24,801 nt of DNA from Bdellovibrio sp. (lineage in GTDB: Bacteria > Bdellovibrionota > Bdellovibrionia > Bdellovibrionales > Bdellovibrionaceae): contig JAKFCY010000006.1 of NCBI GenBank assembly GCA_036676395.1, positions 1-24,801 of the forward strand, in the 5' to 3' direction. A program made the position numbers and the translations under genes. Shown in pieces: positions 3,630 through 23,145 of the stretch. Position 1 is the first letter of the stretch. Each line of letters opens with the position of its first letter. Below the pieces are notes generated by a model, which was not told the DNA's origin, ran no database searches, and saw only the letters and a list, made by a program, of their open reading frames with translations.

Positions 3630-4075
3630 GTGTGCCTTGAATGGTGAATATAGGTCAATTAGTTGATCGTTCCAACGGGTAAAATGCGAAGCATTCATGA
3701 ACACCATTGAATACAAATACTTCGTGAATAAAGTCCCTTTAGCACGGGGGTAATCCCGTAGGGAAGGGAAAGGCTGTTCCGAAGCTAAGCAAGTGGTGGC
3801 GGTAGCTATCGGCATGGTTTACCGCGAGAGGACTGAGCGTTAAGAAAATATCCTGTGGATATTTTTAGTGAGGGGCCAGGCTGCGGACCAGCCTCCTTTT
3901 CTGCCTACTACTATAACTTTGTCATGGCTGAGAAGAAAAGGGTATGAATCGATGCTATCCTACTACCTCAAAACGCAACCTACAATCCAGTGAACCGCCG
4001 TATACGAGACCCGTACGTACGGTGGTGTGAGAGGCGCACCTCGTCAGAGAAATCTGGCGAGGCCGTCTACTCGAT
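3630..4075 (+). mobile_element. Internally deleted group IIC-like intron (5' end, last 37 codons of the intron-encoded protein, intact DV/DVI)
   Basis: 5' GTGTGCC; AADQPPFLPTTITLSWLRRKGYESMLSYYLKTQPTIQ* at 3880-3993; short DV ACCGCCGTATACG...CGTACGGTGGT with CGC triad; ends CTACTCGAT. Confidence 0.88.
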
Positions 4076-4120
4076 TACAAGCTGGGCTTCTGTCTGTGTT
4101 TGTATGTTCGTCAATAGCTG

Positions 4121-4792
4121 TCAAGTTTTTCCTTTAATTAATTTGTCAAGCTCGTTCGCATAGTTAGCAAGAATTAAATTTACTTCTTTCATTGAAGTTA
4201 CAAGGTTCTCAAAGTCAGGATATTTCTTTTGCAGCTCTTGTGGAGAAAGTCTCTTATTAATTTCTTCTTCCTTTGCGTTTTCAAGCCACTTACGAAACTT
4301 TGCGTGGTGTTCTGTCAAGTGCGGACGCAAACCATCATTTAATATTTTTCTTGTCAAGCCAATTAGTGCTTTTGTTGGGTCGTGGTCTTTCAAATATCTA
4401 CCCGGAACTGTTTTAATTTCGTCTCTTATGATGTTGAATAGCTTATACCAAGAGTCATAAATCTCTTCAATGCTGTCATTATTTTCGTCAATAAGTATTG
4501 CCGCCTTTCTTGTAGTTAATTCAATGTGAATTCGATTAGCGATGTATAAATTGTCGTGGTTACGTTCAACTTTAAAAACCATTTTAGGAGTTCCAGAAAT
4601 TTCGACTTCTAAATTTTGCCACCTGAATAATTTTGAAAATTGTCTTTTCAAAATTATCAGAGCAATTATGATAGCTAATATAATCCCTATGAAAATCCAA
4701 TCACTAGAAATTATTAGGGAAGGTTGTTTTCTTTCAAAAGCAACTCGAATAAGTTCGTGTGTTGAAGTGGTGTCTGTCATAGTTATTGCCAT
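4121..4792 (-). CDS. Single-TM hypothetical protein; candidate effector of the TIR operon
   Basis: TM segment WIFIGIILAIIIALIIL then a helical domain (IELTTRKAA, YDSWYKLF, LNDGLRPHLT); start overlaps the upstream TIR gene. Confidence 0.8.
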   Translation of the reverse strand: MAITMTDTTSTHELIRVAFERKQPSLIISSDWIFIGIILAIIIALIILKRQFSKLFRWQNLEVEISGTPKMVFKVERNHDNLYIANRIHIELTTRKAAILIDENNDSIEEIYDSWYKLFNIIRDEIKTVPGRYLKDHDPTKALIGLTRKILNDGLRPHLTEHHAKFRKWLENAKEEEINKRLSPQELQKKYPDFENLVTSMKEVNLILANYANELDKLIKGKT

Positions 4793-5337
4793 TTGTCACT
4801 GGTTCTATTGTTCGCAAAGATTGGATATGAATTGTCGGGCGTAATCTTGTTCCTGTCCTCAAATGCTTTGTGTATCCAACCTTGAACTTCCGCTGGATTT
4901 TTAGACCATTTATATAATTGTGCAAATCTATTTTTTTCATCTTTCCAATTGTCATAAAGTCTTGGAGGAATTGTATGTGGGTCAAATTTATTGTCGTTTA
5001 AAGGGTAGCTAGGCATGAAAATACCTAATAACCCAGAACGTGAATTAAATTGTGTTTGTCTTATACTTGAGCCAATTTCCCAATCAACGTGTTTTCGTTG
5101 CCAAGTGTTGTTTCCAATAAGCACAATGGTTACGGTAGAATCTCTTAAATATTCATCTCTAATTTTTTGTCTGATAGTTTCAGTTTGTAAGTTGGGAGCA
5201 ATTTCACCAATTTGAACTGATTTACTTATCATTATTTGGTGATAGTTTGCGAATAGTGCCTCAAATTGATTGCGATAAGTTTGGTCAGGCTCCGTATGGT
5301 GATAACTTACAAATACCTTATGAATGTTTGTTGCCAT
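4783..5337 (-). CDS. ThsB-like TIR domain protein (MTH538/DUF1863 type)
   Basis: KVFVSYHH, DSTVTIVLIG..TWQRKHVDWEI with the catalytic-position Glu. Confidence 0.88.
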   Translation of the reverse strand: MATNIHKVFVSYHHTEPDQTYRNQFEALFANYHQIMISKSVQIGEIAPNLQTETIRQKIRDEYLRDSTVTIVLIGNNTWQRKHVDWEIGSSIRQTQFNSRSGLLGIFMPSYPLNDNKFDPHTIPPRLYDNWKDEKNRFAQLYKWSKNPAEVQGWIHKAFEDRNKITPDNSYPIFANNRTSDKWQ

Positions 5338-5341
5338 ATTT

Positions 5342-5884
5342 TTAAAGTTTAAATCCTAAAAAGTTTATTGAATTACTTTCCTCACGTTCACGAGAATTAT
5401 TTATTTTGTATGCGTTATTAGTCCTGTTCCAGTAAGCATAGTTTACCTTGCTTTCAAAATCTCTTTCTAAATTTTCCCATTTCATACTAACTGCATATCC
5501 AGATTTTATATTGTCGGCTAATCTGTCAGGTACAGAATGACTGTCAGTTGGTAGGAAGATTGCCAAAAGCCCATTTGGCTTAAATGATTTCAAGGGGTCG
5601 TATGGATGGGTGTAACTTCGCAGGGATGCCCAAATCTCCCAGTCTATCCATTTTCGATATCCTGTTCTTGAACCAACTAAAACAACGGTCACGGAGCAGT
5701 TCCTCATTTTCTCACGAACCTTCTTATAAATTGTTTCATCTGTCAAGTGTCCAATGTCGTCTTTTAAAGAGTAGTCAGCCACTCTCATATTCGTAATGGT
5801 CTTGCGAAGTTTTGTCAAATATTTTTGGTCGTTGTCGTGATGGTAGCTCACAAAACAATTTCGTATTTTCTTTTCTATTGGCAT
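5342..5884 (-). CDS. ThsB-like TIR domain protein (MTH538/DUF1863 type)
   Basis: CFVSYHH..D, CSVTVVLVG..TGYRKWIDWEI. Confidence 0.88.
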   Translation of the reverse strand: MPIEKKIRNCFVSYHHDNDQKYLTKLRKTITNMRVADYSLKDDIGHLTDETIYKKVREKMRNCSVTVVLVGSRTGYRKWIDWEIWASLRSYTHPYDPLKSFKPNGLLAIFLPTDSHSVPDRLADNIKSGYAVSMKWENLERDFESKVNYAYWNRTNNAYKINNSREREESNSINFLGFKL

Positions 5885-6367
5885 TTATGAAGTAATTATT
5901 GCGTCCATAACGCCACTTAACGGGTGTACTGAACTACTATAGTTAGAAAACATTTTTCTTTCAAGAATAAGTTGTTTCTCTTGTCCTTGCTTCTTGATAA
6001 ATTCATTTATATCGTAAATATCTCGAATTATGGGTTTTGTTTTGATGTAATCAGGAAGGTCTGAATTTTTTATTCCTTTTAAAGTTAATGTTGCTAGGTC
6101 TGTTACATCATAGCCGTATCCAACTTCAAATGGAACCCATTTGGAAATCAATGTATTTGGAGAAACAATACAAAGCATATGTGTCGAACTTTTAATTCCT
6201 TTTTTAATGGCCGCAACAACAGCTTTAGGGTCGTTGTTTATGTCTGCTTGTTGTAATTCTTTATCAAACTCATCAAAGTAAACTGCTATGCCAACTGATA
6301 TTAAATAGTCAGCAATTTTTTTTGCCTCGTCTCTGTCACGTTTTTGGTGGCTTATAAATACTTTCAT
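5885..6367 (-). CDS. TIR domain protein (TIR_2-like)
   Basis: MKVFISHQ..D, VYFD, I..S.HMLCIVSPNT..SKWVPFEVG; ATG at 6367 (alternative TTG at 6376). Confidence 0.87.
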   Translation of the reverse strand: MKVFISHQKRDRDEAKKIADYLISVGIAVYFDEFDKELQQADINNDPKAVVAAIKKGIKSSTHMLCIVSPNTLISKWVPFEVGYGYDVTDLATLTLKGIKNSDLPDYIKTKPIIRDIYDINEFIKKQGQEKQLILERKMFSNYSSSVHPLSGVMDAIITS

Positions 6368-6412
6368 TTTTGTCAATAGTGTTTAATTGTTGATGTGTCG
6401 TCTGTTAGCCTT

Positions 6413-6547
6413 GCTTGTAACGTTTTGCAGCTACCTGAAGGGCGGGATTTTTACCACAAAACTACATTTGAAAAACTAATGTTTGTTTAACCACAAAACT
6501 GTCTTTGGAACACGAAACCCCGGCTTTTGGGTAGGTGCTGTTGCACT
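6413..6547 (-). repeat. attC-like site
   Basis: GCTTGTAAC-GTTTTGCAGCTACCTGAAGGGCGGG ... CCCGGCTTTTGGGTAGGTGCT-GTTGCACT; imperfect inverted arms around an AT-rich loop. Confidence 0.78.
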
Positions 6548-6798: not shown

Positions 6799-6851
6799 AG
6801 CGGTTTCAATGTCCGTGCTACGCACTCGACGAAAACCTAGTTGTTATGTGC
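6791..6851 (-). repeat. Short attC-like site (about 50 bp between cores)
   Basis: AAC-AGCGGTTTC...GAAAACCTAGTT-GTT; a closely related right half recurs at about 10742-10772, 14699-14729 and 19401-19431. Confidence 0.7.
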
Positions 6852-6876
6852 TGGCATTGTATTAGGTTTCAACATG

Positions 6877-7422: not shown

Positions 7423-7448
7423 AAATGTCTTGTGTTGGTTTTATGCTT

Positions 7449-7581
7449 GCACATAACGTTTTGCGGCTAAAAGAAGTGGCGGCTTTGGAACACTAAACCT
7501 TCTATACACACACTGTTTATTAATTGCACAACTGTTTATACTTGCACTTCTCCCGCCATTTTTTTAGGTGCTGTTATGAGC
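7449..7581 (-). repeat. attC-like site
   Basis: GCACATAAC-GTTTTGCGGCTAAAAGAAGTGGCGG ... CCGCCATTTTTTTAGGTGCT-GTTATGAGC. Confidence 0.8.
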
Positions 7582-7586
7582 CGTTT

Positions 7587-8231
7587 TTATATCAATCCTT
7601 TGTCTATTAGAAATTGTGTTTTAAACATTGAAAATTCTTTATCAGATTTTGCATTATCTATTATTTCGTCAAGAAGAATAGCTTGAAGTCCCACTGTTAG
7701 TTCTCGTGTATACTTGTCAATTAAATTTTGAAGTTCCTTTAATGCATCAGAACGCCTTTCAATTAGTTCTTTTCTGTTTAATTTTATTTCCTTCCATGTC
7801 AGCTCTCCTCTTTTACTGTCATTAATATGGAACAACATTGGGCCAAATGCCTGTAAATGTAAATCAACATCATCTTTATAAGGATTCAAAAGTTTACAAT
7901 TTTTATCTAATGTCGTTCTCTTATTGTTATTGCACCAATAACAAACAAATGATAAGTTATTCCAAGAAAATGTTAAACGTGGATAAACTGATTTAGGAAT
8001 TATATGTTCAACATCACCAGGATATTGATGAGTGATAAAACACTCGCAGTAAATACATTTTTCCTCTGTCTCAATCTTTACTTCAGTCTTAATGTCCGCA
8101 TGTCTGTAATGAGCTTGAACATGCGTTGGAACAGGTAGTCCAGAATTAATGAAACCCATTAATTGTTGTGTCCAATTTGGTCCGTTTACTAATAGAACGT
8201 TTGGTGCTGGTCTCTTTAATCGCTTTATCAT
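7587..8231 (-). CDS. HNH endonuclease, PtuB-like
   Basis: KCIYCE...DVEHIIPKS.YP.L.F.W.NL...C..CN..K, LLNPY.DD; 4-nt overlap with the ATPase gene. Confidence 0.87.
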   Translation of the reverse strand: MIKRLKRPAPNVLLVNGPNWTQQLMGFINSGLPVPTHVQAHYRHADIKTEVKIETEEKCIYCECFITHQYPGDVEHIIPKSVYPRLTFSWNNLSFVCYWCNNNKRTTLDKNCKLLNPYKDDVDLHLQAFGPMLFHINDSKRGELTWKEIKLNRKELIERRSDALKELQNLIDKYTRELTVGLQAILLDEIIDNAKSDKEFSMFKTQFLIDKGLI

Positions 8232-9475
8232 TTCTTTTTACTTTTTTCAATTAACGTTGCAACTGAAGTAGAAACATATTTATCTAGCCCTACTTTTTTA
8301 ATGTCAGACTTGAAGGATAAGATATTCTCTGGAGTAATACCAGAATCACTGTATTTTGTAATTATTTTGTCAAGTTCTTCGTCTACCCATTCAGGCATAG
8401 TTGTTTCAATCCCTAACACTTCCCTAAGAATGTCATTAGCGCTTCCAGATTTTTCAATATTTTCAAGAAGAATTGAGTCTACTTTACCATTAGCATTGTA
8501 ATTCAAAACAAAAACATTTGAGTCAGGAACTGAACTTATAATAAATGGATTATGAGTCGCAATAATAAATTGTACGTTTGGAAATGCTTTTAAAAAGTTG
8601 GGCAGAAGAGATTTTTGCATCTCAGGATGCAAATGATTTTCAGGCTCGTCTAATGTTACAACATATTCTTTTTGAGGTTCCTCAAACATATAAAGTTGCC
8701 AAGCAAGGTCTATAATTGAAGCTATTCCTCCAGAAACTGCATCTAAAGAGAAGTCTCCTGATCGAGTTATTAAAACTACTTCAGGTATTCGAATTGCTAT
8801 TTTCTCAAATCCTAACTTTGGAGGAAGGATTATTTTTAAAATTTCTTCAAATCCTCTAAAAATATTAACTGCCTCGCTATTTCTAATTACTACTTCATTT
8901 CCAAAGCCAAATGTTGCAAGTGAAATTAAAGTTTCCTTAATATGGTAGTTCTCGAATTTACCCCCACCACTTTGATACCGATTTACTTTTGCTTGATTAT
9001 ATTGGTTGTAAGCTTGTTGCTTTGTTATTACTTGGGTTGAAATATTTGAAATAGGTTGATATTTATAAACAGGTCTATGAGAAGGAATATGGAGGCCTTT
9101 TACAGCCTGCTGACCAGTGTAATTCAGATTATATGTTGTTCCTACTACTGCCGGAACGGTCAATTTGCATACTTTATCACCAACGTATTCTATGCTGCCA
9201 ACTTCAATATGATTATTTGGAATTTTGTCAATGTCATTTGAGTTGTCAAAAAGGGTTTTCCACATATCAGAGAAGAATTTCAACCCACCAGTTTTTTCAT
9301 CTCTAGTTGGTGTTCCAACGATTTCAGAAGGCCAGCCAAAATGTCGATTAACAGTATTCAATATAGTTGTTTTGCCAGCACCATTCGCACCAGTAAGTAT
9401 TGTCAGCCTTTTGTGAAAATCAATTTGAATATTTTCAAATTGCCTCCAATTTTTTATTGTTACCGATTTGAACAT
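8228..9475 (-). CDS. ABC/AAA ATPase, PtuA-like
   Basis: Walker A GANGAGKTT, signature VSGG, Walker B/D-loop LDEPENHLHP, H-loop IATHNP; likely start MFKSVTIKNWRQF at 9475. Confidence 0.88.
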   Translation of the reverse strand: MFKSVTIKNWRQFENIQIDFHKRLTILTGANGAGKTTILNTVNRHFGWPSEIVGTPTRDEKTGGLKFFSDMWKTLFDNSNDIDKIPNNHIEVGSIEYVGDKVCKLTVPAVVGTTYNLNYTGQQAVKGLHIPSHRPVYKYQPISNISTQVITKQQAYNQYNQAKVNRYQSGGGKFENYHIKETLISLATFGFGNEVVIRNSEAVNIFRGFEEILKIILPPKLGFEKIAIRIPEVVLITRSGDFSLDAVSGGIASIIDLAWQLYMFEEPQKEYVVTLDEPENHLHPEMQKSLLPNFLKAFPNVQFIIATHNPFIISSVPDSNVFVLNYNANGKVDSILLENIEKSGSANDILREVLGIETTMPEWVDEELDKIITKYSDSGITPENILSFKSDIKKVGLDKYVSTSVATLIEKSKKK

Positions 9476-9551
9476 TAGTTGTGTTTTTTGTTTAAAGTTG
9501 GTTAATCCAATTTTGTTATAAAACAATTATTTATCCCTGAAGTATTTTTTG

Positions 9552-9974: not shown

Positions 9975-10772
9975 AATTCTGACTAACGAACCTCAAAAGT
10001 CTTAAAAATTTCAGCTGTTTTGAGGCCCAGAGCGTCTTCGGTGAGACCGTCCCGTAAGTTACGGGATGCTTCTTTGTCCTTTTAACTAATCCCAGCTTTC
10101 TTTTCTGATCCGGAAAAAGTTATCCTTCGGGGTTGATATCGGCAAGAAAGGGATTTTTAGGAACAAAAAAATACCCTGTACAGGGTATTTTTAGGCGTAA
10201 TAACTGGAAAACTGAAGGTTTTTGAAGAGAGTGGCCGTTTGAATCCGAGCTGTGCTTTAACCCGCATTATGCATTAGCATTTCTATTGCGGGCTAAAATT
10301 GCTTTAAAATCAGACACTTCGCTGCTGTTTTCGACTTCACTATAGCGGTGCTATGCCTCAGTCTCCAAACAGCCTGATTTTCTTGCTATTTTAACCCTTC
10401 CCGATAAAAATCGGGACAGGCTATAACGAAGCCTAATGCAAAATCCGGGTTTAAGTTCCGGGAAATAAAAATCCTAAAAGAGAGGTTAATACTGATTCTT
10501 GGGACTTGCTATCTGCGGGATTGTAGGTCGAAAATGGGGTATAATTGCACTTTTCGATTTCAAGAAATCTCAGGGTTCATGGGGGCAACTTGCTCCGGAA
10601 TCTCCAGGACTTACTAATCAATTTTTTAAAGTCTTACCAACACAAAAAGAACCCAAAATCTTACCCAATCCCCATAAGCACCTCATCGTTCCGATGGTAA
10701 TCGGGAAGCGCTTTCATTGTTCCCGCCGCAGCGGGCAAGCTGTGCTACGAACGCAACGAAAACCTAGTTGTT
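9975..10772. repeat. Long non-coding repeat, copy A (longest)
   Basis: Shares sequence with 14289-14729 and 19176-19431; begins AATTCTGACTAAC and ends in the short attC-like half GAAAACCTAGTTGTT. Confidence 0.85.
10260..10450. mobile_element. MITE with ACCC-starting terminal inverted repeats (IS982-like ends) and a TTA duplication
   Basis: ACCCGCATTATGCATTAG ... CTAATGCAAAATCCGGGT; the empty site GCTTTAAGTTCCGGG is present in repeat copy B near 14406-14420. Confidence 0.82.
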
Positions 10773-10786
10773 AGCTGCTGATGCTA

Positions 10787-12042: not shown

Positions 12043-12049
12043 TGCATTT

Positions 12050-12180
12050 GCAGCTAACGTTTTGCAGCTACCCGAAGGTGGCGATTTCGGAGCGATTCAC
12101 TGTCAATATACCACAGACTTTTATAGTTGCACAAAGCTTCAATTAACCACTGAACTCGCTTTTTTGCCAAACGCCTGTGT
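12050..12180 (-). repeat. attC-like site (chimeric arms), split by a group II intron
   Basis: GCAGCTAAC-GTTTTGCAGCTACC...; the right part matches the site at 22850-22898; followed by an intron 5' end. Confidence 0.7.
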
Positions 12181-12746
12181 GTGTGCCTTGAATGGTGAAT
12201 ATAGGTCAATTAGTTGATCGTTCCAACGGGTAAAAGGCGAAGCATTCATGAACTGGATAATCTGGACTAAAGTGAGCCACCTATTGAATACAAATACTTC
12301 GTGAATAAAGTCCTTTAAGCACGGGGTAGTCCCGTAGTGACGGGACAGGCTGTCCCGAAGCCAAGCAAGAGGTGCCGATATCTATCGGAATGGTTTACTG
12401 CGAGAGGACCGAGCGTTAAGAAAATATCCTGTGGATATTTTTAGTGAGGGGCCAGGCTGCGGACCAGCCCCCTTTTCTGCCTACGACTATTACTTTATCA
12501 CGCCTGAGAAGAAAAGGGTATGAATCGATGCTATCCTACTACCTCAAAACGCAACCTACAATCCAGTGAACCGGATTGGTGGTCAAGATCATCGGATTCT
12601 ACACTTAGGATCAATTTAGCGAAGTGCCGGAACGTATCCCGAAAGCTTTCGGGAGTGGTCTGCCTTCGGCAGATAAATGTGAGACTGTGCGCGCCGTGGC
12701 GTAGGCGCACCTCGTCAGAGAAATCTGGCGAGGCCGTCTACTCGAT
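12181..12746 (+). mobile_element. Internally deleted group IIC-like intron, DV disrupted
   Basis: Near-copy of 3630-4075 at the 5' end, protein tail and DVI (..GGCCGTCTACTCGAT); DV replaced by palindrome-rich sequence after GAACCG. Confidence 0.85.
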
Positions 12747-12756
12747 TATGCATATT

Positions 12757-13386
12757 TTATTTATCTCTATCAACGATACCATTCTTCTTTTCTTCAGGTA
12801 ATGCATCATAAATACCACTAACCTTATTGGGCAGAGAAACCATATATTCAATTATAATATTTGTCAATTCGAAGAGCTTGTTTACAACATTTATATTGTC
12901 TGTATCTATTTGACCAGGATGAACTGCATCATTGCCTGTAACACGCACAATGTCTAAAGATTGTTGCACTATAGATGGTAGTCCTTTTTTTACAAGTTCT
13001 TTGATATCATGATTAATGTTATTACCATCTTCTCCTAATTCCTTGCACAGAAGTTGAACACCTAATCTCAACAGAGCCGCAGCTCCTCGAGGAGATTTTG
13101 TTGATATAGATGCGGCCTCATTGTATAATTTTTTTACAGATTCTGGCATGTCTGGATTTGGAAATGGAGCTTCACCCGTTTCTGGATAAAACATTTTGTC
13201 CAATATCCATAGGCTTTTGTCATGGCAATGGTCACAGGATCCAACGCGCACGGTGTTTTTCGGCGAATTACCGGCATAACGAGTGTTCAAATCCCAATCT
13301 GTTTGTACCCATCTTTGTTTAGAAAGAACACCACAGTTGGGGCATGTAAATGATTCTCCAAAGACAACGGGTTGAATATATTTCAT
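12757..13386 (-). CDS. DUF4145-like domain protein with N-terminal CxxC motifs
   Basis: CPNC/CDHC; LYNEA...SPRGAAALLRL; LDIVRVTGNDAVHPG (R-x3-N-x3-H). Confidence 0.82.
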   Translation of the reverse strand: MKYIQPVVFGESFTCPNCGVLSKQRWVQTDWDLNTRYAGNSPKNTVRVGSCDHCHDKSLWILDKMFYPETGEAPFPNPDMPESVKKLYNEAASISTKSPRGAAALLRLGVQLLCKELGEDGNNINHDIKELVKKGLPSIVQQSLDIVRVTGNDAVHPGQIDTDNINVVNKLFELTNIIIEYMVSLPNKVSGIYDALPEEKKNGIVDRDK

Positions 13387-13958
13387 GATTCTTTATTTAA
13401 TTTCTTATCTCTTTCTGCCTTATAGGAATTACGCACCTTTTCACATCTCCAAGCTAAATAATTTAGTCTCCATAATTCGTAGAATCTTGGAGTCCGACCA
13501 TTAAGATAGCATTTCCTGATGCAGTTATCTAATGAGTCACCGAGTTTACTTCCTTTATCAACTACCTTTTTGGCTATATCAGGAGATGAAAGGGTATACT
13601 GAGTGTAATCTGGTAGCCGAGTCAGAACTCTGATTGAATTGTCTAATCCCCACAATGCGTATCGTGTTTTTGGCCTTAAAGTCTTTAATTTGGATTTTGC
13701 TTGTTCAGCCTTTTCACTCCAATTTAATCTGCTTTCATCAGTTTTGTTCTTGAGTAAAATATTACTAATCGCTATTAATTGATGCACGGAATCTGCTATA
13801 TCATAAATAAAACTTTCAAGCGTTTTTCTGCGAGCAATTCGAATTTCTGATTTACGATTAAAGAAAAGTGTTAGAAAAAATGTAAATATTGAAATAACAG
13901 CAGCAATGCACGCTGCGATTAGTGTTGCCATACCTCTATCGAATGTTCCTATCTCCAT
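13383..13958 (-). CDS. Hypothetical protein with N-terminal TM helix
   Basis: ATLIAACIAAVISIFTFFLTLFF; 4-nt overlap with the DUF4145-like gene. Confidence 0.75.
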   Translation of the reverse strand: MEIGTFDRGMATLIAACIAAVISIFTFFLTLFFNRKSEIRIARRKTLESFIYDIADSVHQLIAISNILLKNKTDESRLNWSEKAEQAKSKLKTLRPKTRYALWGLDNSIRVLTRLPDYTQYTLSSPDIAKKVVDKGSKLGDSLDNCIRKCYLNGRTPRFYELWRLNYLAWRCEKVRNSYKAERDKKLNKES

Positions 13959-13968
13959 AGTTTCTTAT

Positions 13969-14006
13969 TATGCATAACTCATTTATATGTCGGGTTTTGT
14001 TTCCTT
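13969..14006 (-). other. Putative attI-like primary recombination site
   Basis: Cassette start GTTATGCATA (minus strand) about 28 nt after the integrase remnant stop, with no attC hairpin between them. Confidence 0.5.
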
Positions 14007-14162
14007 TTATTTCTCTAAGTCCAAATCGTCCAAAGGACTTCGAATCCCCTTTAATGCTTTCGTGCTTACATGTATATAGATTTCGGTAATCTTACTGCTT
14101 TTGTGACCTAATAGTTCTTGAATATAACGCAAATCTGTTCCCCTTTCCAAAAGATGAGTAGC
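14007..14162 (-). pseudogene. C-terminal remnant of a tyrosine recombinase (integron integrase-like)
   Basis: Manual translation [51 protein letters not shown]: box II LLGH and catalytic-position Tyr, plus an SPLD tail; in-frame stop immediately upstream. Confidence 0.88.
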
Positions 14163-14288
14163 TTACCTCTTCCGAAAACGAAATCTCCATTTGTCAGAAA
14201 AGGGAAAGAGGACCACGGGCGAGTAAGGAAGCAATCTCTTCATTTAGGAGATTGATTAGCCATAGGAATACCGGAGTAGTTTAGTTAC

Positions 14289-14729
14289 TATCGGCAAGAA
14301 AGGGGTTTTTAGAAACAAAAAAATACCCTGTATAGGGTATTTTTAGGCGTAATATCTGGAAAACTGAAGGTTTTTGAATAGAGTGGCCGTTTGAATCCGA
14401 GCTGTGCTTTAAGTTCCGGGAAGTGAAAATCCTAAAAGAGAGGTTAATACTGATTCTTGGGACTTGCTATCTGCGGGATTGTAGGTCGAAAATGGGCTAT
14501 AATTGCACATTTCGATTTCAAGAAATTCAGGGTTCAGGGGGGCAACTTGCTCCGGAATCTCCAGGACTTAATAATCAATTTTTCAAAGTCTTTCCAACAT
14601 AAAAAGAACCCAAAATCCGACCCCATCCCCATAAGTACCTCACCGTTCCGATGGTAATAGGGAAGCCCTTTCATTGTTCCCGCCGCAGCGGGCAAGCTGT
14701 GCTACGCACGCAACGAAAACCTAGTTGTT
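14289..14729. repeat. Long non-coding repeat, copy B
   Basis: Aligns to about 10137-10772 without the MITE. Confidence 0.85.
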
Positions 14730-14770
14730 GTGCGATCGCTTTCTTTCACTTCACTCTTTAGCTTCAATTA

Positions 14771-15211
14771 TTATTTTCTAATTACTTCTGATGACTGTCT
14801 GGCTGTCAATTGCCAACCATTTTCAGACCTAATCCATACATTGGTAAACCTTCTAGGTACCCATTCTTCTTGGTTCGTTGTCAAATTAGCAGGCTGTTGT
14901 AACTCTTTGCCCATTACAATAGCAACGTTTTGATTGAAAGTGATTTTTTCAATAATTCTTTCAACTTTGGGGAACTTATGCCCACTTTTCATCAGTGCAA
15001 CAATCTTTTCTGGAGTTACAATTTCTCCATTAGGATTGTTTACCACGTAGTCCTTCGACCATATTTTCAATAATGAAGTTGTGTCTCCATTATCAAGCAG
15101 TTCTGTCCAATGCTTTTCCAATCTTCTGATTTCTTGCTCATCATTCGATTGTCCAAAGGTAAGCGTAGTTACAAAAATGAAACTGATCAAGAAGAAATTA
15201 AAAGTTTTCAT
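14771..15211 (-). CDS. Secreted NTF2-like / DUF4440 family protein
   Basis: Signal peptide; EIRRLEKHW...D...L..IWSKDYVV.NP.G; RRFTNVWIR..NGWQL.ARQ. Confidence 0.85.
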   Translation of the reverse strand: MKTFNFFLISFIFVTTLTFGQSNDEQEIRRLEKHWTELLDNGDTTSLLKIWSKDYVVNNPNGEIVTPEKIVALMKSGHKFPKVERIIEKITFNQNVAIVMGKELQQPANLTTNQEEWVPRRFTNVWIRSENGWQLTARQSSEVIRK

Positions 15212-15270
15212 AAATCAATATTTTAGTTTATTGTAACAATTTATCACGCAAAGATTGACTTTGAAAGTGA

Positions 15271-15394
15271 CGCACAACGTTTAGCTATTTGCAGTGGGCT
15301 GGCTTTGAAAACGTATCTGTCCACCATGCCCAAAAGTAATAGCGAAGATAAAACTTTAAATTTACACTTCACCCAGCCATTGCAAATGTGCTGT
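15271..15394 (-). repeat. attC-like site, split by a group II intron
   Basis: CGCACAAC...ATTTGCAGTGGGCTGG ... CCAGCCATTGCAAAT-GTGCTGT|intron. Confidence 0.78.
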
Positions 15395-15957
15395 GTGTGC
15401 CCGGTATGGCACGGTAACGAAGTTACCACAAAATACCTAGAGGATGCAAGTTTCTTATGGGCAAGTTGGAGAAGCCCATTAGCAAACTCAAGCAGCTTAC
15501 CAAGAAGACTATCCGCCGCGGCGGATCGAAGAACTGCTCCGAAAGCTGGCAGAAGTATGGCGGGGATGGGTGAGCAATTACCGCCTAGCCAGTATCCATG
15601 CCAAACTAAAGGCCATCGATGAATGGTTGAGAAATGCGCAGCATTCATGAACACCATTAAAAATAAACTCATTGTGAATAAACCGGCTTCGCTACTGTAT
15701 TTGGTCCGCCGCGGCGGAGAAGAAACCTGAGCGAAAGCGCAAAAACCTGATCAGATTGGGAGTGGATCAAGACCATGCTTACGCATGGAAGGACTCAGCG
15801 TTAAGAAATGATCCCTTAGGATCATTTTAGCGAAGAGCCGGAACGTATCCCGAAAGCTTTCGGGAGTGGTCTGCCTTCGGCAGATAAATGTGAGACTGTG
15901 TGCGCCGTGGCGTATGCGCACCTCGTCAGAGAAATCTGGCGATGCCGTCTACTCGAT
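15395..15957 (+). mobile_element. Degenerate group IIC-like intron with fragmented maturase (domain X) remnant
   Basis: 5' GTGTGCCCGGTATGGC; KLAEVWRGWVSNYRLASIHAKLKAIDEWLRN (15543-15635), RLRYCIW (15684-15704), KKPERKRKNLIRLGVDQDHAYAW (15720-15788); DVI ends CTACTCGAT. Confidence 0.85.
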
Positions 15958-16197
15958 TATGCCTTCTTTGTTCTCTTTCGGTCGTGCTTTGTCCGTCCAT
16001 TGTTGCTGTGTCTGGGTGCTTGGTGGCTCTTTTGGATTTTTTTAGCATTGGTCGGTGCGTTGAAAAAAAATACAAAAATATGCCACCAAATGCGATGGGT
16101 TGTCCTGCTGTCATTGTGCAATTTGTGCTATTAATGTGCAATTGTTCCATTGTCTGCCGTTTTGGTTATGACGCAATTGACGCAATTATGACGCAAT

Positions 16198-16741: not shown

Positions 16742-16914
16742 CCAAACCTGTTCTATCACTTGGAGCTGGGATACAAATTAGCCTAACTTAATGAACTACT
16801 ATCTGACTGCATAATAAGAGCCGTATGAATCGAGAGGTTCACATCCTGTCCCGCTACTGCGGGGTAAGGTTCTGTGAGAGTTTTAGGGGTGGAATTCCCC
16901 TTTACCTTCTCGAT
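16742..16914 (+). mobile_element. Group II intron 3' remnant (AGC-triad lineage) with a protein tail
   Basis: PNLFYHLELGYKLA* (16742-16786), GAGCCGTATG DV at 16818, DVI ending CTCGAT; homologous to 2594-2702. Confidence 0.8.
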
Positions 16915-19104: not shown

Positions 19105-19175
19105 CAAAATATTCTATGAAATTTTTTGGGATGATTATTGGAAGGAAGATAGATGCTTGTTTTGGTTGGTTTTTC

Positions 19176-19431
19176 AATTCTGACTAACGAACCTCAAAAG
19201 TCTTGAATTTCAGCTGTTTTGTGGCCCGGATCGTCTTCGGTGAGACCGTCCCGTAAGTTACGGGATGCTTCTTTATCCTTTTAACTAATCCCAACTTTCT
19301 TTTCTGATCCGGAATAAGGTATCCTTCGGGGTTGATATTGACAAGAAAGGTGTTTTTAGGTATGGAACCCTTTCATTGTTCCCGCCGTAGCGGTCAAGCT
19401 GCGCTACGCACGCAACGAAAGCTTAGTTGTT
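19176..19431. repeat. Long non-coding repeat, copy C (internally deleted)
   Basis: Matches about 9975-10161, joined to about 10705-10772. Confidence 0.85.
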
Positions 19432-19460
19432 ACCGGCTGCTCTTTTTATGCTCGTTCAAT

Positions 19461-20069
19461 TTATAAATCAATTGTCCTGAAAGTTAAGTTTATTCTTGGT
19501 TCGATTATTAGCTTTGTCGGGGGAAGTCTGTGTAGCCAATTTGTTTGGGTATTGTCTTTCATTACCAATAAACTACCGTGTTCTAAAATTAATGAAATGG
19601 TTTCTTTCGTTTCTTTGTGTTTGAAGGCAAATTTGCGTTCTGCTCCAAAACTTAACGAACCAATTGCTCCATTTTTCTTTAAATCTTTTTCTGCATCGCT
19701 ATGCCAAGCCATTCCTTCATCACCATTGTGGTATAAGTTGAGTAAGCAGGAATTGAATTTTTCGCCTGTTATTTCTTCCGTAAGTGATTTTAATTCTAAT
19801 AATTCCCTTGTCCAGGGTAAGGCTCGTTTTGTGGTGTTAGAATAGGTGTATTCAAAATTAGTATCACCATGCCAAGCTACTTTCCGTTTTGTAATTATTA
19901 GTTTTCCATAGATAATAGCCTGATCATTTTTCCACTCGATTGTATTCATTAAACAGTCGAAATAATGATTTGCCTCTTTGTTGGGCAATAGTTTTCCGTA
20001 ATAATTTACAACACCATCTTTGGGCAGTAAGTTTTTTGAGCCGTCTATTTTGTTATCGAATAAATCCAT
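19461..20069 (-). CDS. alkB: AlkB family alpha-ketoglutarate-dependent dioxygenase
   Basis: FNSCLLNLY..G..GMAWHSD (HxD), W.H.LP, RINLTFR. Confidence 0.92.
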   Translation of the reverse strand: MDLFDNKIDGSKNLLPKDGVVNYYGKLLPNKEANHYFDCLMNTIEWKNDQAIIYGKLIITKRKVAWHGDTNFEYTYSNTTKRALPWTRELLELKSLTEEITGEKFNSCLLNLYHNGDEGMAWHSDAEKDLKKNGAIGSLSFGAERKFAFKHKETKETISLILEHGSLLVMKDNTQTNWLHRLPPTKLIIEPRINLTFRTIDL

Positions 20070-20293
20070 TTTTTATATGCTGTTTTCATACAATGCCCAC
20101 AAGGTCTATAACCGTTTTTAAAAGCTTCACTTTCCGATGCAAAGAAAACTCTGTTTTCCCGTTTCATTCGTTTACCTGATTTACATTTTAGTGTTCCGTA
20201 TATTTTTAACTTTCCATTTCCTCCAAAGAAAATTTCTTTTTGCTTGATTTTCCTTCTTAAATCGCTATCGTTTATTTCAAGATGTTTTATCAT
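20045..20293 (-). CDS. Small Ada metal-binding domain protein
   Basis: IYG.L.C.SGKRMKRENRVFF.SE.EA...GYRPCGHC. Confidence 0.85.
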   Translation of the reverse strand: MIKHLEINDSDLRRKIKQKEIFFGGNGKLKIYGTLKCKSGKRMKRENRVFFASESEAFKNGYRPCGHCMKTAYKKWIYSITK

Positions 20294-20296
20294 TCT

Positions 20297-21016
20297 CTAA
20301 CTCAAAGCATCGTGAAAAATAATTCCCAGAGTGTGTCGCTCTCCACTATGGATTTCACTTACTCCATGTTTCATATTTACACGATAGTATCCTTTACTAC
20401 CTTTTACCGGTCTAAAGTTAGTTGTAAAAATCAGCATATCGCCTTTCATTGGTTTTAATACTATTGCTTTTGATTGTGCTCTTGGCGTTTGTTGGGTTAA
20501 TACAAATTCTCCACCTGTAAAATCTTGATCCGGCTCGTTTAAAAATAAAACGGTTTGAATTGGAAAATATACATCTCCATACAAATCTTGATGCAGGGTA
20601 TTGTGTCCGCCTTTACCATATTTCAAAATTAAAACGGTTGCTTTTGTTTGGTTATTTTCATTACACTGTTTCAGAAGATCCTGAAGTGTATCAGGAAAAA
20701 GCGTAGCGATATTTAGCACTTTCATCCAGGCGTTTGCAATTGGTGCAAGTTTGGGATATATGCTTTCTCTAATGCTTTGAATTAAATTAGGCAATGGATA
20801 ATTGAAATATTTGTATTCACCCAAGCCAAAACGGTAGCGTTCCATCACTACCGTTTTTCTGTAAGCATTTGGATTGTTATAATTCCTTATCAATTCGGTA
20901 CATTGCTCGTTTGTTAAGAGTTTTGGAATTATAGCAAACCCTTTTGCGTGCATTTCTTCAACTATATTTTTCCAGTCAATTGAGGCTATTTTTTCTTTTA
21001 CTTCAATATCTGTCAT
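20297..21016 (-). CDS. 2OG-Fe(II) oxygenase (DUF2086-like)
   Basis: LHQDLYG, FTGGEFVL, HGVS....GERHTLGIIFHDA. Confidence 0.88.
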   Translation of the reverse strand: MTDIEVKEKIASIDWKNIVEEMHAKGFAIIPKLLTNEQCTELIRNYNNPNAYRKTVVMERYRFGLGEYKYFNYPLPNLIQSIRESIYPKLAPIANAWMKVLNIATLFPDTLQDLLKQCNENNQTKATVLILKYGKGGHNTLHQDLYGDVYFPIQTVLFLNEPDQDFTGGEFVLTQQTPRAQSKAIVLKPMKGDMLIFTTNFRPVKGSKGYYRVNMKHGVSEIHSGERHTLGIIFHDALS

Positions 21017-21741
21017 AGTTTAACTGATGCTATTTCCAAAAATATTTCACACAATTCTTGGGGTTTGCTAAAAAAAGGTGAATGGCTGGTTTGCATTTTA
21101 TAAACCTTTTCGCAAACCATTTCTGTGTACATTTTTTGTTGAATAAAAGGGGTTACCGCTTTGTCTTTTGTACATTCTATATAATACCTGGGTACACTTC
21201 CGTATTTTTCGTTGGTGAGTTGCAATGGTGTAATTCCTGTTACTGCACTTTCGTGGCTTAGTATCATCCTAGCCATTTGGTATATATCATCATCACAATC
21301 GTGGTATAGTCCTTCTTTGTAAATTTCTGGTTGTAATGTATGGGAATTTGTATTTGGAAATCTTGTTACATAAGGTTTTAAAACACCATTAACGTCTTGT
21401 GAAGAATAATCTGCTTGTGTTTTTGCATTGGGAATTAAATATGCAGCAAGGTAAATTAATTTTTCAATTTTTTCAGGACGGTATTCTGCAACTTGCGAAA
21501 TCATAATCCCGTTTTTGCTATGCCCAACAAGTATTACCTGGTCATCAATGCCATCGATAAGTTTGCAAATTTCCTCTACTGTAGATTCTAATGTTACTTC
21601 TTTAATGGGAGTTTTATCTCGTCCCATTCCAGGCAAATCAATTGCGAATGCTTTGTGTCCTTGTTTTTCTAAAATTGGAACAACTTTGTGCCAATTCCAA
21701 GAGCTATGCCACGAACCGTGTATTAAAATAAATGTCTTCAT
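21013..21741 (-). CDS. Alpha/beta hydrolase (methylesterase-like)
   Basis: FILIHGSWH, DLPG.G, LVGHSKNG nucleophile elbow, D.AV, SHSPF. Confidence 0.88.
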   Translation of the reverse strand: MKTFILIHGSWHSSWNWHKVVPILEKQGHKAFAIDLPGMGRDKTPIKEVTLESTVEEICKLIDGIDDQVILVGHSKNGIMISQVAEYRPEKIEKLIYLAAYLIPNAKTQADYSSQDVNGVLKPYVTRFPNTNSHTLQPEIYKEGLYHDCDDDIYQMARMILSHESAVTGITPLQLTNEKYGSVPRYYIECTKDKAVTPFIQQKMYTEMVCEKVYKMQTSHSPFFSKPQELCEIFLEIASVKL

Positions 21742-21792
21742 TTTTTATTGTTTAAAAATTATAATGCAAAAATGCACATCATTAAAAAATAA

Positions 21793-21812
21793 TAAAACCC
21801 GAAACTTGCTAA
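21793..21812. promoter_or_regulatory. 20-bp motif TAAAACCCGAAACTTGCTAA, copy 1 (candidate regulator box)
   Basis: Identical to 22706-22725; about 50 nt upstream of the hydrolase start. Confidence 0.6.
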
Positions 21813-22669
21813 ATTAATTCTGAATGTGTTTTTGTTCCTTCCCAACCTATGATGGCTGTTTTTCTTGTATTTCCCCACATATACCCGCCAATTACTCCTG
21901 TAGATTGTATTACACGATGACAGGGAATTAAGAACGCAACAGGATTGCTTCCAATGGCAGTTCCTACTGCTCTTGAAGCATTTGGCTTCTCAATTTTATT
22001 GGCAATAGTTCCATAGGTTGTAAGCTGTCCCATTGGAATTTTTAAAAGTGTTTGCCATACTTTTAGTTGAAAATCAGTTCCTTTTAAGTGCAGTTTTATT
22101 TGATTCAATTTTGTCCAATCGTGTCTGAAAATGTATAGTGCATTTTGCTGAATTAAATCTACCATTTGTTTGTATTGAGCATTGGGAAAATGACTGAGCA
22201 TTGTTGGCAGTGCAACAGATTCATCATCGGAAAATGCCATATAACAAATTCCTTTTTCTGTTGATGCCACTAAAATGTTTCCAAAAGGGCTTTCTGCAAA
22301 GCTGTAATTTATAGCTAAATCTTTTCCGCCATTTTTATATTCGGCAGGTGTCATACCTTCTATGTTGATAAACAGGTCGTGTAAACGACCTGTGCCTGAA
22401 AGTCCAGTTTCGTGTGCCGTTTCAAAAAGTGTTGCTTGATTTTCTTTTAATAAAGTTTTAGCGTATTCTACGGTTGTATATTGCAAAAATTTCTTTGGAC
22501 TTGTTCCTGCCCATTCGCTAAAGAGCCGTTGAAAATGAAATGAGCTTAGATGAACCTTCTTTGCAACTTCGTCAAGATTGGGTTGCTCTTTAAAGTTTGT
22601 TTTTATATACTCAATTGCTTCAGCAATTCTTTTATAATTGATATTTTGTTGTTCGGTCATTGTATTCAA
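21809..22669 (-). CDS. ada: Bifunctional AraC-HTH / methylated-DNA-protein-cysteine methyltransferase (Ada-like)
   Basis: HFQRLF..WAG.SPK HTH; GTDFQLKVW, ASRAVG.A...NP, IPCHRV active site. Confidence 0.9.
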   Translation of the reverse strand: MNTMTEQQNINYKRIAEAIEYIKTNFKEQPNLDEVAKKVHLSSFHFQRLFSEWAGTSPKKFLQYTTVEYAKTLLKENQATLFETAHETGLSGTGRLHDLFINIEGMTPAEYKNGGKDLAINYSFAESPFGNILVASTEKGICYMAFSDDESVALPTMLSHFPNAQYKQMVDLIQQNALYIFRHDWTKLNQIKLHLKGTDFQLKVWQTLLKIPMGQLTTYGTIANKIEKPNASRAVGTAIGSNPVAFLIPCHRVIQSTGVIGGYMWGNTRKTAIIGWEGTKTHSELI

Positions 22670-22769: not shown

Positions 22770-22898
22770 GCCGATATGGGTTCGGGGCTTGGCGAATAAT
22801 CGGATTTCGAAGCGCTAAACTGTCTGTCAGCACTGAACTTGATACGAAGCGCAAAGCTTCAATTAAGCATTGAACCCGCTTTTTTACCAAACCGCTGT
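22770..22898 (-). repeat. Degenerate attC-like site followed by an intron 5' end
   Basis: GCCGATATG (decayed partner of GTTACCGGC at 19429) ... TTTTTACCAAACCGCTGT|GTGTGCC. Confidence 0.6.
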
Positions 22899-23145
22899 GT
22901 GTGCCTTGAATGGTGAATATAGGTCAATTAGTTGATCGTCCCAACGGGTGAAATGTGAAGCATTCATGTACAGCATTGAATTCATATACTTCGTGAATAG
23001 AGTCCCTTAAGCACGGGGGTAATCCCATTGGGACGGGAGAGGTTGTCCCGAAGCCAAGCAAGTGGTGCCGATATCTATCGGAATGGTTTACTGCGAGGGG
23101 CCAGGTTGCAGGGTAGGCAGAAAAGGGGGCTGGTCCGCCACGGCG
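22899..23145 (+). mobile_element. 5' fragment of the same group IIC-like intron; 3' end lost, short inverted piece of protein tail
   Basis: GTGTGCCTTGAATGGTG... matches 3630 and 12181; GTAGGCAGAAAAGGGGGCTGGTCCGC is the reverse complement of about 12459-12485. Confidence 0.8.

Follow-up and report, generated by a model that had tools for sequence, protein, structure and literature searches.

The 3′ stub of a Xer-like recombinase gene and its attI-like junction within an array of attC cassettes

The stub, its junction and the surrounding array

The window, by which we mean the whole 24,801-nt stretch of DNA analysed, contains on its minus strand the 3′ stub of a tyrosine recombinase gene, followed by an attI-like junction and a cassette (Table 1). 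The open frame of the stub encodes box II of the tyrosine recombinase together with the tyrosine nucleophile, and matches PF00589 with an E value of 9.6e-9, at profile positions 138-170 of 172 only. The initial annotation had described 51 codons of a tyrosine recombinase C-terminus here, a count that includes the stop, and had called the frame an integrase remnant. Both descriptions agree with the homology searches. A DNA profile (nhmmer) made from the last 384 aligned positions of 98 intact homologous genes aligns to the stub with an E value of 8.8e-40, puts the 5′ limit of homology at ~14180, and has 223 positions 5′ of the alignment without counterpart in the window. With eight full-length homologues as tblastn queries, residues 322-368 of 368 matched 14162..14022 (E ~1e-17 to 1e-19), and every other match in the window had E >= 0.078. 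As the homology ends at this 5′ limit, ca. 85% of the recombinase gene is gone, and the stub retains ~58 of roughly 369 codons. Further decayed integrase sequence was sought in 14184-14288 by tblastn and with the profile, and none was found. The stub is 78-83% identical to its closest intact relatives and 73% identical to the homologue on contig C50 of the same genome. Of the catalytic residues only the LLGH histidine and the tyrosine nucleophile are kept, hence the stub cannot catalyse. Two conserved Thr residues are missing (KITEIYIHV), which indicates that the coding sequence is not under protein-level constraint. Judged by its sequence, the stub is the non-functional 3′ end of a gene for a Xer-like tyrosine recombinase with a putative HARP-type domain.

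Table 1. Coordinates of the stub, its junction and neighbouring features in the window
Feature	Position	Strand	Remarks
Recombinase gene stub	14007..14183	-	homology to intact genes 14179..14020, envelope 14183..14019
Stub open frame	14159..14010	-	50 codons, tyrosine-recombinase C-terminus
Premature in-frame TAA	14162..14160	-	directly 5′ of open frame; replaces Tyr of RHSY^ATH in intact genes
Stub stop TAA	14009..14007	-	
attI-like junction	13966..14006	-	conserved core motif, no hairpin
Core motif TATAAATGAG^TTA	13987..13975	-	TATAA-R-Y-R-AG^TTR form
GTTATGC core	13978..13972	-	
GTTATGCATA	13978..13969	-	exactly 28 nt (14006..13979) after stub stop
First cassette behind junction	12757..13958	-	two overlapping ORFs
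ORF of first cassette	13958..13383	-	191 aa, no family found
DUF4145 / PD-T7-4 ORF of first cassette	13386..12757	-	E 2e-80
attC of first cassette	12048-12180 plus 12749-12756 (span 12048..12756)	+	read on bottom strand
Spacer	14184..14288		105 nt, between stub and repeat element
Non-coding array repeat copy	14289..14742	-	matches 10137-10785 except 195-nt MITE
Nearest upstream cassette	14771..15394	-	SnoaL/DUF4440 ORF 15211..14771, attC 15268-15394 in front
attC	6412-6543		attC HMM
attC	7448-7582		attC HMM
attC	12048-12178		attC HMM
attC	15268-15394		attC HMM, E 9.7e-8
attC	22779-22898		attC HMM

The DNA behind the stub stop is not folded like an attC site. The region of 13960-14010 folds with -0.6 kcal/mol (z -0.05) and that of 13940-14080 has a z of +0.24, compared with -17.1 kcal/mol and a z of -1.87 for a true attC of the array (7445-7585, + strand). 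The absence of a hairpin had been noted in the initial annotation together with a cassette start about 28 nt after the stop, and the spacing indeed measures exactly this value. At most of the intact genes, a core of the form ...ATATAAA-Y-R-AG^TTA... lies behind the stop, usually ~100 nt away, and is preceded by short inverted or direct repeats. The stub keeps this conserved GTT-core motif. Its distance of 28 nt from the stop, as against ~100 nt in most loci, means that the usual upstream repeats are missing at the stub; one intact gene (in genome G044) likewise has its first unit ~28 nt from the stop, and a second at ~72 nt. We then defined a strict motif, TATAA[AG][CT][AG]AGTT[AG], and sought it within 120 nt of the stop, where it is present in 23 of 97 loci. 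Both strands of this genome, 9,282,356 nt in total, contain it only three times, and one of these occurrences is at 13987..13975, behind the stub. Alignment of the whole junction to 105 loci scored marginally above shuffled sequences, the best score being 18 and the null maximum 14.8 ± 1.4 (at most 19). The case for the junction is thus made by the rare motif and its position, and these features make the junction a candidate attI.

The sites found with our attC HMM lie on both sides of the stub, three below and two above its position. Hence the stub is inside the array, where the initial annotation had placed it. An ORF-less group II intron-like element (~12181-12748, + strand) interrupts the GT^TA core of the attC of the first cassette. 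On the other side, the 105-nt spacer has no second copy in this genome and none in 150 family genomes. Beyond it, the array repeat begins, immediately behind the SnoaL cassette ORF, with a 60-nt module resembling an attC arm. Partial copies of the repeat are located at 19170-19440 and, past the end of the window, at ~25103-25474 in window numbering (C54:32403-32774), so that the contig has four copies.

Several other elements populate the array region. ORF-less group II intron-like elements are found at 3630-4078, 12181-12748, and 22899-23100, with pieces at 15815-15972, 2585-2696, and 16796-16907. They oppose the strand of the cassette genes, with GTGTG at the start and domain V/VI at the end. 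Two of them, at 3630 and 12181, interrupt the GT^TA of an attC core, and the last 46-48 nt of the elements are 100% identical in other genera (G028, G040, and G087). The Rfam RF00029 threshold is reached only by the copy at 3993-4075, and none of the other copies was picked up when the Rfam search was relaxed. A MITE-like element of 195 nt with 23-nt terminal inverted repeats lies inside one copy of the array repeat (10256-10454). It has more than 25 copies over many contigs, and the right end of the window's contig, C54, is made of such copies. A comparison of contig ends that could link this contig with C50 or others found MITE or repeat copies at the ends and no link. The ~60-nt module, which starts with TAACAAC followed by a tight GC hairpin, stands behind cassette ORFs at no fewer than 12 places, including 14671-14742, 10711-10785, 19370-19444, and 6815-6858 in the window and others on C139, C131, C65, C51, C46, C47, and C126. 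It resembles one attC arm, and the matching second arm is absent.

The cassettes of the window include anti-phage defence genes, namely a Septu pair at 7587-9526 (PtuA, E 1e-165; PtuB, E 1.6e-66), the PD-T7-4 homologue of the first cassette (12757-13386), and three ThsB-like TIR genes in a row at 4783-6376. Between attC sites, 19461-22669 encodes an AlkB-like 2OG oxygenase, an Oxygenase-NA protein, an alpha/beta hydrolase, and an Ada-like AraC-MGMT fusion. This DNA-alkylation repair run may be a single large cassette, or else ordinary chromosomal DNA that became enclosed by the array. A 142-aa ORF at 15244-15672, which has no family and overlaps the attC at 15268-15394, is unlikely to be a gene. 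A BlaR1/M56-like gene (431-2377, + strand) forms the border of the array region; at its 3′ end, tandem 54-nt and 33-nt repeats (2002-2353) encode a KMKEFE/EWAK-type repeat.

Intact homologues and the arrays behind them

A search for intact copies, as proposed in the initial annotation, returned one gene in the same genome (C50:1110-2258) and further intact homologues in relatives. Going by what its closest proteins are called, the window's genome is a Cyclobacteriaceae-like Bacteroidota. The protein encoded on C50 matches PF00589 with an E value of 3.9e-44 and the XerA-type model NF040815 with 230.2 bits (cut-off 220) over residues 112-374, so that its N-terminal 110 residues are outside the model. 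It scores below the cut-offs for IntI (TIGR02249, 218.7 bits against 265), XerD (201.1 against 329.6), and XerC (194.1 against 335.15). Its best sequence matches among solved structures are of the XerA/Xer type (4a8e, E 4.4e-46; 5hxy, E 1.2e-38). Separate XerC/D-like genes are present in the genome on C27 and C95.

What defines an integron integrase is an inserted helix, to which bases flipped out of the folded attC DNA are bound. The initial annotation had named this IntI-specific insertion as a feature to look for in the homologues, and it turned out to be absent from them. Specifically, TIGR02249 aligns to the C50 protein in two pieces, at profile positions 2-178 and 239-315, leaving ~19 residues where IntI has ~60, and the alignment to VchIntIA, the solved Vibrio IntI (2a3v), leaves out chain residues 205-243. 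For the listed family genomes, too, the matches to the IntI model stop near profile position 180. Hence the enzyme would be the integrase of an integron-like system and is not IntI. A search of this genome with TIGR02249 gave nothing above 265 bits. Canonical IntI passes the cut-off in three of 151 family genomes, and with the attC HMM these three loci have no site (G120 and G038) or a single site on the contig (G128), without an array. This set of 151 genomes, which also underlies the counts for C- and N-terminal queries below, includes the unpublished genome G111, as does the 150-genome search of relatives, and none of the conclusions depends on this genome. In a tree of 20 recombinases, from which two badly trimmed rows had been dropped, the branches are long and the placement of IntI is not resolved.

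In the intact homologues, a domain of ~95 residues precedes the Xer-like core. We read it tentatively as a HARP-type domain on the basis of profile and model comparisons; Pfam HARP (PF07443) itself scores 12.3-18.4 bits in this clade's proteins, less than its cut-off of 25. When 15 such N-terminal domains were made into a profile and run against 1.84 billion representatives, 1090 proteins matched at E <= 0.001. Twelve of these were scanned: seven are recombinases, several of them with 2-4 copies of the domain, two are SNF2 helicases, and in three HARP passes the cut-off (P0248, 36.2 bits; P0256, 31.7 bits; P0157, 32.1 bits). The AlphaFold model of the N-terminal domain has a pLDDT of 78. Its fold matches the N-domain of UvsW (Z 6.9, rmsd 2.3, 63 aligned residues) and XPB (Z 5.8 and 4.8), and more weakly the HARP domain of SMARCAL1 (Z 3.5, rmsd 2.2, 49 aligned residues), all within the middling range. 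Foldseek against the PDB gave no match for this domain at E <= 0.001. HARP-type domains bind forked or branched DNA.

We then inspected the DNA on either side of the intact genes. Our hairpin scan looked for AAC..GTT ends 55-200 nt apart with 28-nt arms, using DNA energies and a cut-off of <= -14 kcal/mol; its background in this genome is 42 sites in 4,641,178 nt, and it is an under-counting scan that recovered two of the five attC HMM sites in the window. Gapless or strict inverted-repeat searches for attC yielded almost nothing, and the folding-based scan and the DNA HMM did work. Around intact or nearly intact homologues, 28 family loci were fetched, which come from related genomes and are not independent samples. 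Their bottom strand carries 58 sites over 195,589 nt of downstream DNA, against 0 over 128,385 nt of upstream DNA, and their top (sense) strand 11 downstream and 0 upstream; the sense strand alone under-counts, as in locus L039 with 0 sites there and 9 on the bottom strand. At least two downstream sites are present in 15 of the 28 loci, and fewer than two in 7 of the 22 that have at least 3 kb downstream. The second set was the best 80 loci for the stub peptide, one genome per species, from Flavobacterium, Pedobacter, Chitinophaga, Lewinellaceae, Ignavibacteriota, and others. These best 80 loci have 75 sites in 192,533 nt downstream compared with 9 in 368,741 nt upstream. Thirty of them offer 3 kb or more of downstream sequence; 24 of these contain one or more sites, 15 two or more, and 6 none. 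In 29 of the best 80 loci the contig ends less than 500 nt from the gene, as expected if repeats follow the gene. Behind the C50 gene, the attC HMM (built from 50 sites) has six matches on the expected strand.

Most of the sites are 125-130 nt long (~127-nt hairpins). RNAalifold on 39 aligned sites, two of them from the window, gave 22 consensus pairs, 18 of which have compensatory changes. The cassettes hence close with imperfect palindromes that have AAC...GTT cores and share a conserved structure, as the cassettes of an integron platform do. The position of the recombinase gene also fits a platform: it adjoins the array and has a conserved junction motif beside it, which may act as attI. 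The association of the recombinase family with attC arrays is strong, one-sided, and on the same strand in two independent locus sets. From this position we infer that the family provides the integrase of the arrays. The co-oriented layout with an entry site 3′ of the gene, as the initial annotation had pictured it, agrees with what the intact homologues display, with the GTT-core motif and same-strand attC sites behind them. The annotation had also considered that the homologues might prove to be XerC/D or phage integrases without downstream arrays; they are Xer-like but head cassette arrays.

Directly behind the array-type recombinase, three loci (L033, L034, and L040 in G141, G134, and G078, respectively) have a further recombinase gene (~275 aa) together with a ~391-aa ORF. 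This unit has 13-18 copies in G134 and is therefore probably a mobile element landing at the junction.

Origin of the stub

The stub in the window is not a single case. The same genome (G000) has a second stub (C131:69578-69725), which is more decayed and cut at the same place, and the DNA behind it matches the downstream region of an intact 459-aa gene in a genome of the same genus (G130). Reduction of the gene to its tail has therefore happened repeatedly. Beyond this second stub, at a distance of 5 kb, is an attC-arm module. Of 27 loci with short frames in the family, 18 are 3′-only stubs, seven are full-length but broken genes, and in two the contig ends within the gene. Among the 18 stubs, 5′ limits range over residues 212-328, and in 16 nothing before residue 273 is left. 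With the N-terminal domain as query, no more than two possible 5′-only pieces were seen among 58 matching places, in a comparison of unequal sensitivity since 3′-only pieces were sought with the C-terminal query (matching 113 of 151 genomes) and the N-terminal domain, whose conservation is lower, matched 49 of 151.

We consider, with a probability of roughly 80%, that the stub is the decayed head of one array, still attached to its native insertion site and joined behind another array, in an order of events that is reconstructed from the present arrangement. The recombinase family heads integron-like cassette arrays in Bacteroidota and points into them. The gene in question would once have headed the array now running from 13978 down to ~2400. 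A rearrangement would then have removed the 5′ 85% of the gene and left the stub directly behind other cassettes, which extend from 14.7 kb to at least the contig end. The junction at the cut side of the stub may stem from deletion, fusion, or insertion; a search of 150 genomes for a relative in which the gene is intact at the position of the stub yielded none. The cassettes, if still mobile, would need an intact paralogue acting in trans, such as the C50 gene, which has its own array.

The initial annotation had proposed either fused arrays or an integrase that moved as cargo and then decayed. Array fusion is retained as one of the options above. The cargo version, in which the recombinase gene moved as a cassette, landed mid-array, and decayed, would suit the attC sites flanking the stub on both sides, and in G123 two stubs (L161 and L163) share an upstream flank, so that a stub plus flank may be copyable as a unit. 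What lies behind the stub, however, is the native downstream site, with the motif of array-heading genes instead of an attC hairpin, and no attC half stands between the stop and the first cassette. This makes cargo highly improbable. A self-inflicted or off-target insertion is only slightly less improbable. The family consensus DNA for RHSYATH, CATAGTTATGC, is a copy of the GTTATGC core. Cassettes would have entered the integrase gene at this internal core-like GTT site, and the 5′ part would have been lost later. Two Flavobacterium pseudogenes are broken exactly at the internal AGTTAYGC, by an inserted 21-nt GC palindrome (L131:5975-5997) and by a 2-nt deletion (L135:5985-5995), another gene (L154) is split by ~2.6 kb at residue 305-307, and the homology limit in the window (14179) coincides with a GTT. 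This limit is nevertheless ~20 nt upstream of the GTTATGC copy, the limits of the 18 stubs are scattered instead of falling on a single site, the DNA immediately 5′ of the stub does not represent an attC arm, and the 5′ half of the gene is absent from this assembly. On balance, such an insertion is unlikely to have produced the stub. A general rule that the gene is always cut at the internal GTTATGC copy was rejected on the same spread and the same ~20-nt offset.

Two further explanations concern what the stub is for and whether it belongs to the array at all. Selection may keep the 3′ end if the last 50-95 codons hold part of the insertion site or the promoter of the first cassettes, which is compatible with the decayed-head reading. 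The excess of 3′-only over 5′-only pieces would follow from it, as would the 50 codons that stay open in the window while three of the four codons just upstream are altered; the unequal sensitivity of that count and the two lost Thr residues speak against it, and we regard this selection as possible but rather doubtful. Coincidence, with the stub deriving from an ordinary Xer or phage integrase unrelated to the cassettes, is barely credible. The family is indeed XerA-like by NF040815 and without the IntI insertion, and recombinases without the IntI domain near attC sites are judged not to be IntI by Cury et al. (2016; 10.1101/030866). But the one-sided, same-strand attC association in two independent locus sets, the rare conserved motif at the stub junction, and the separate XerC/D-like genes of this genome all argue for a link between the stub and the cassettes.

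Meaning and comparison with known systems

The stub indicates that the cassette arrays here form part of a system with a different, Xer-like enzyme at its head, which has a putative fork-DNA-binding domain. If this enzyme moves cassettes, it would represent a second solution to the recombination of single-strand hairpins, independent or ancestral, many "orphan" attC clusters would be complete platforms, and a large reservoir of anti-phage defence cassettes, to which Septu, PD-T7-4, and the ThsB-like genes of the window belong, would gain a means of transfer. A smaller point made by the stub is that arrays can lose the integrase yet retain the junction. More tentatively, we propose as one conceivable picture a Bacteroidota phylum-wide integron whose HARP-domain, Xer-like recombinase handles attC without the IntI insertion and whose last 50-95 codons are part of the site or promoter. 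If true, this role of the codons would explain why arrays without their integrase so frequently retain just this stub and can still be served in trans by a paralogue, here the C50 gene.

The IntegronFinder 2.0 paper gives a single complete integron in Bacteroidetes proper (PMC9024848), and an archaeal integron preprint restates the IntI domain as defining (10.1101/2022.02.06.479319). The search tool of the field discards recombinases without the IntI insertion, and Bacteroidota are reported with almost no integrons (PMC9024848; 10.1101/030866). We found no description of the present system in a search of open-access papers and bioRxiv.

The nearest likeness in layout is with the integrons of Spirochaetota/Treponema, whose intI is co-oriented ("inverted" or in "reverse orientation"): there too the gene points into the array with the site behind its stop, and attC hairpins have AAC/GTT cores and fold better on the bottom strand. 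In contrast to the present family, which has a putative HARP-type N-terminal domain instead, those integrases have the IntI-specific domain. A co-oriented group of chromosomal integrons is mentioned in two of the above sources (10.1101/030866; 10.1101/2022.02.06.479319). By the IntegronFinder definition, the window qualifies as a CALIN, having attC sites (by our own attC HMM) while IntI is absent from both contig and genome. Different from a CALIN, its array carries a stub of its own non-IntI recombinase, and intact copies of this gene head similar arrays; therefore the array is not simply orphaned. The simple tyrosine recombinases XerA and Xer (4a8e and 5hxy) are the best solved-structure matches, with NF040815 above its cut-off. 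Compared with them, this family adds the putative HARP-type domain (~95-180 aa, 1-4 copies in relatives) and sits at array heads in a genome that has other XerC/D-like genes.

Two comparisons bear on single elements of the window. The group II intron-like elements in attC cores resemble group IIC-attC introns, which prefer attC sites as targets, in lying on the strand opposite to the cassette genes; different from those introns, the copies in the window are ORF-less (~450-570 nt) and only one of them reaches the Rfam threshold. The delta-attI-type cassettes of mobile class 1 integrons (PMC12901181) share with the stub that a head piece of the platform, the insertion site, lies within an array. 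Theirs comes from canonical IntI1 on mobile elements, whereas the piece in the window is chromosomal, derives from another recombinase family, and keeps part of the gene.
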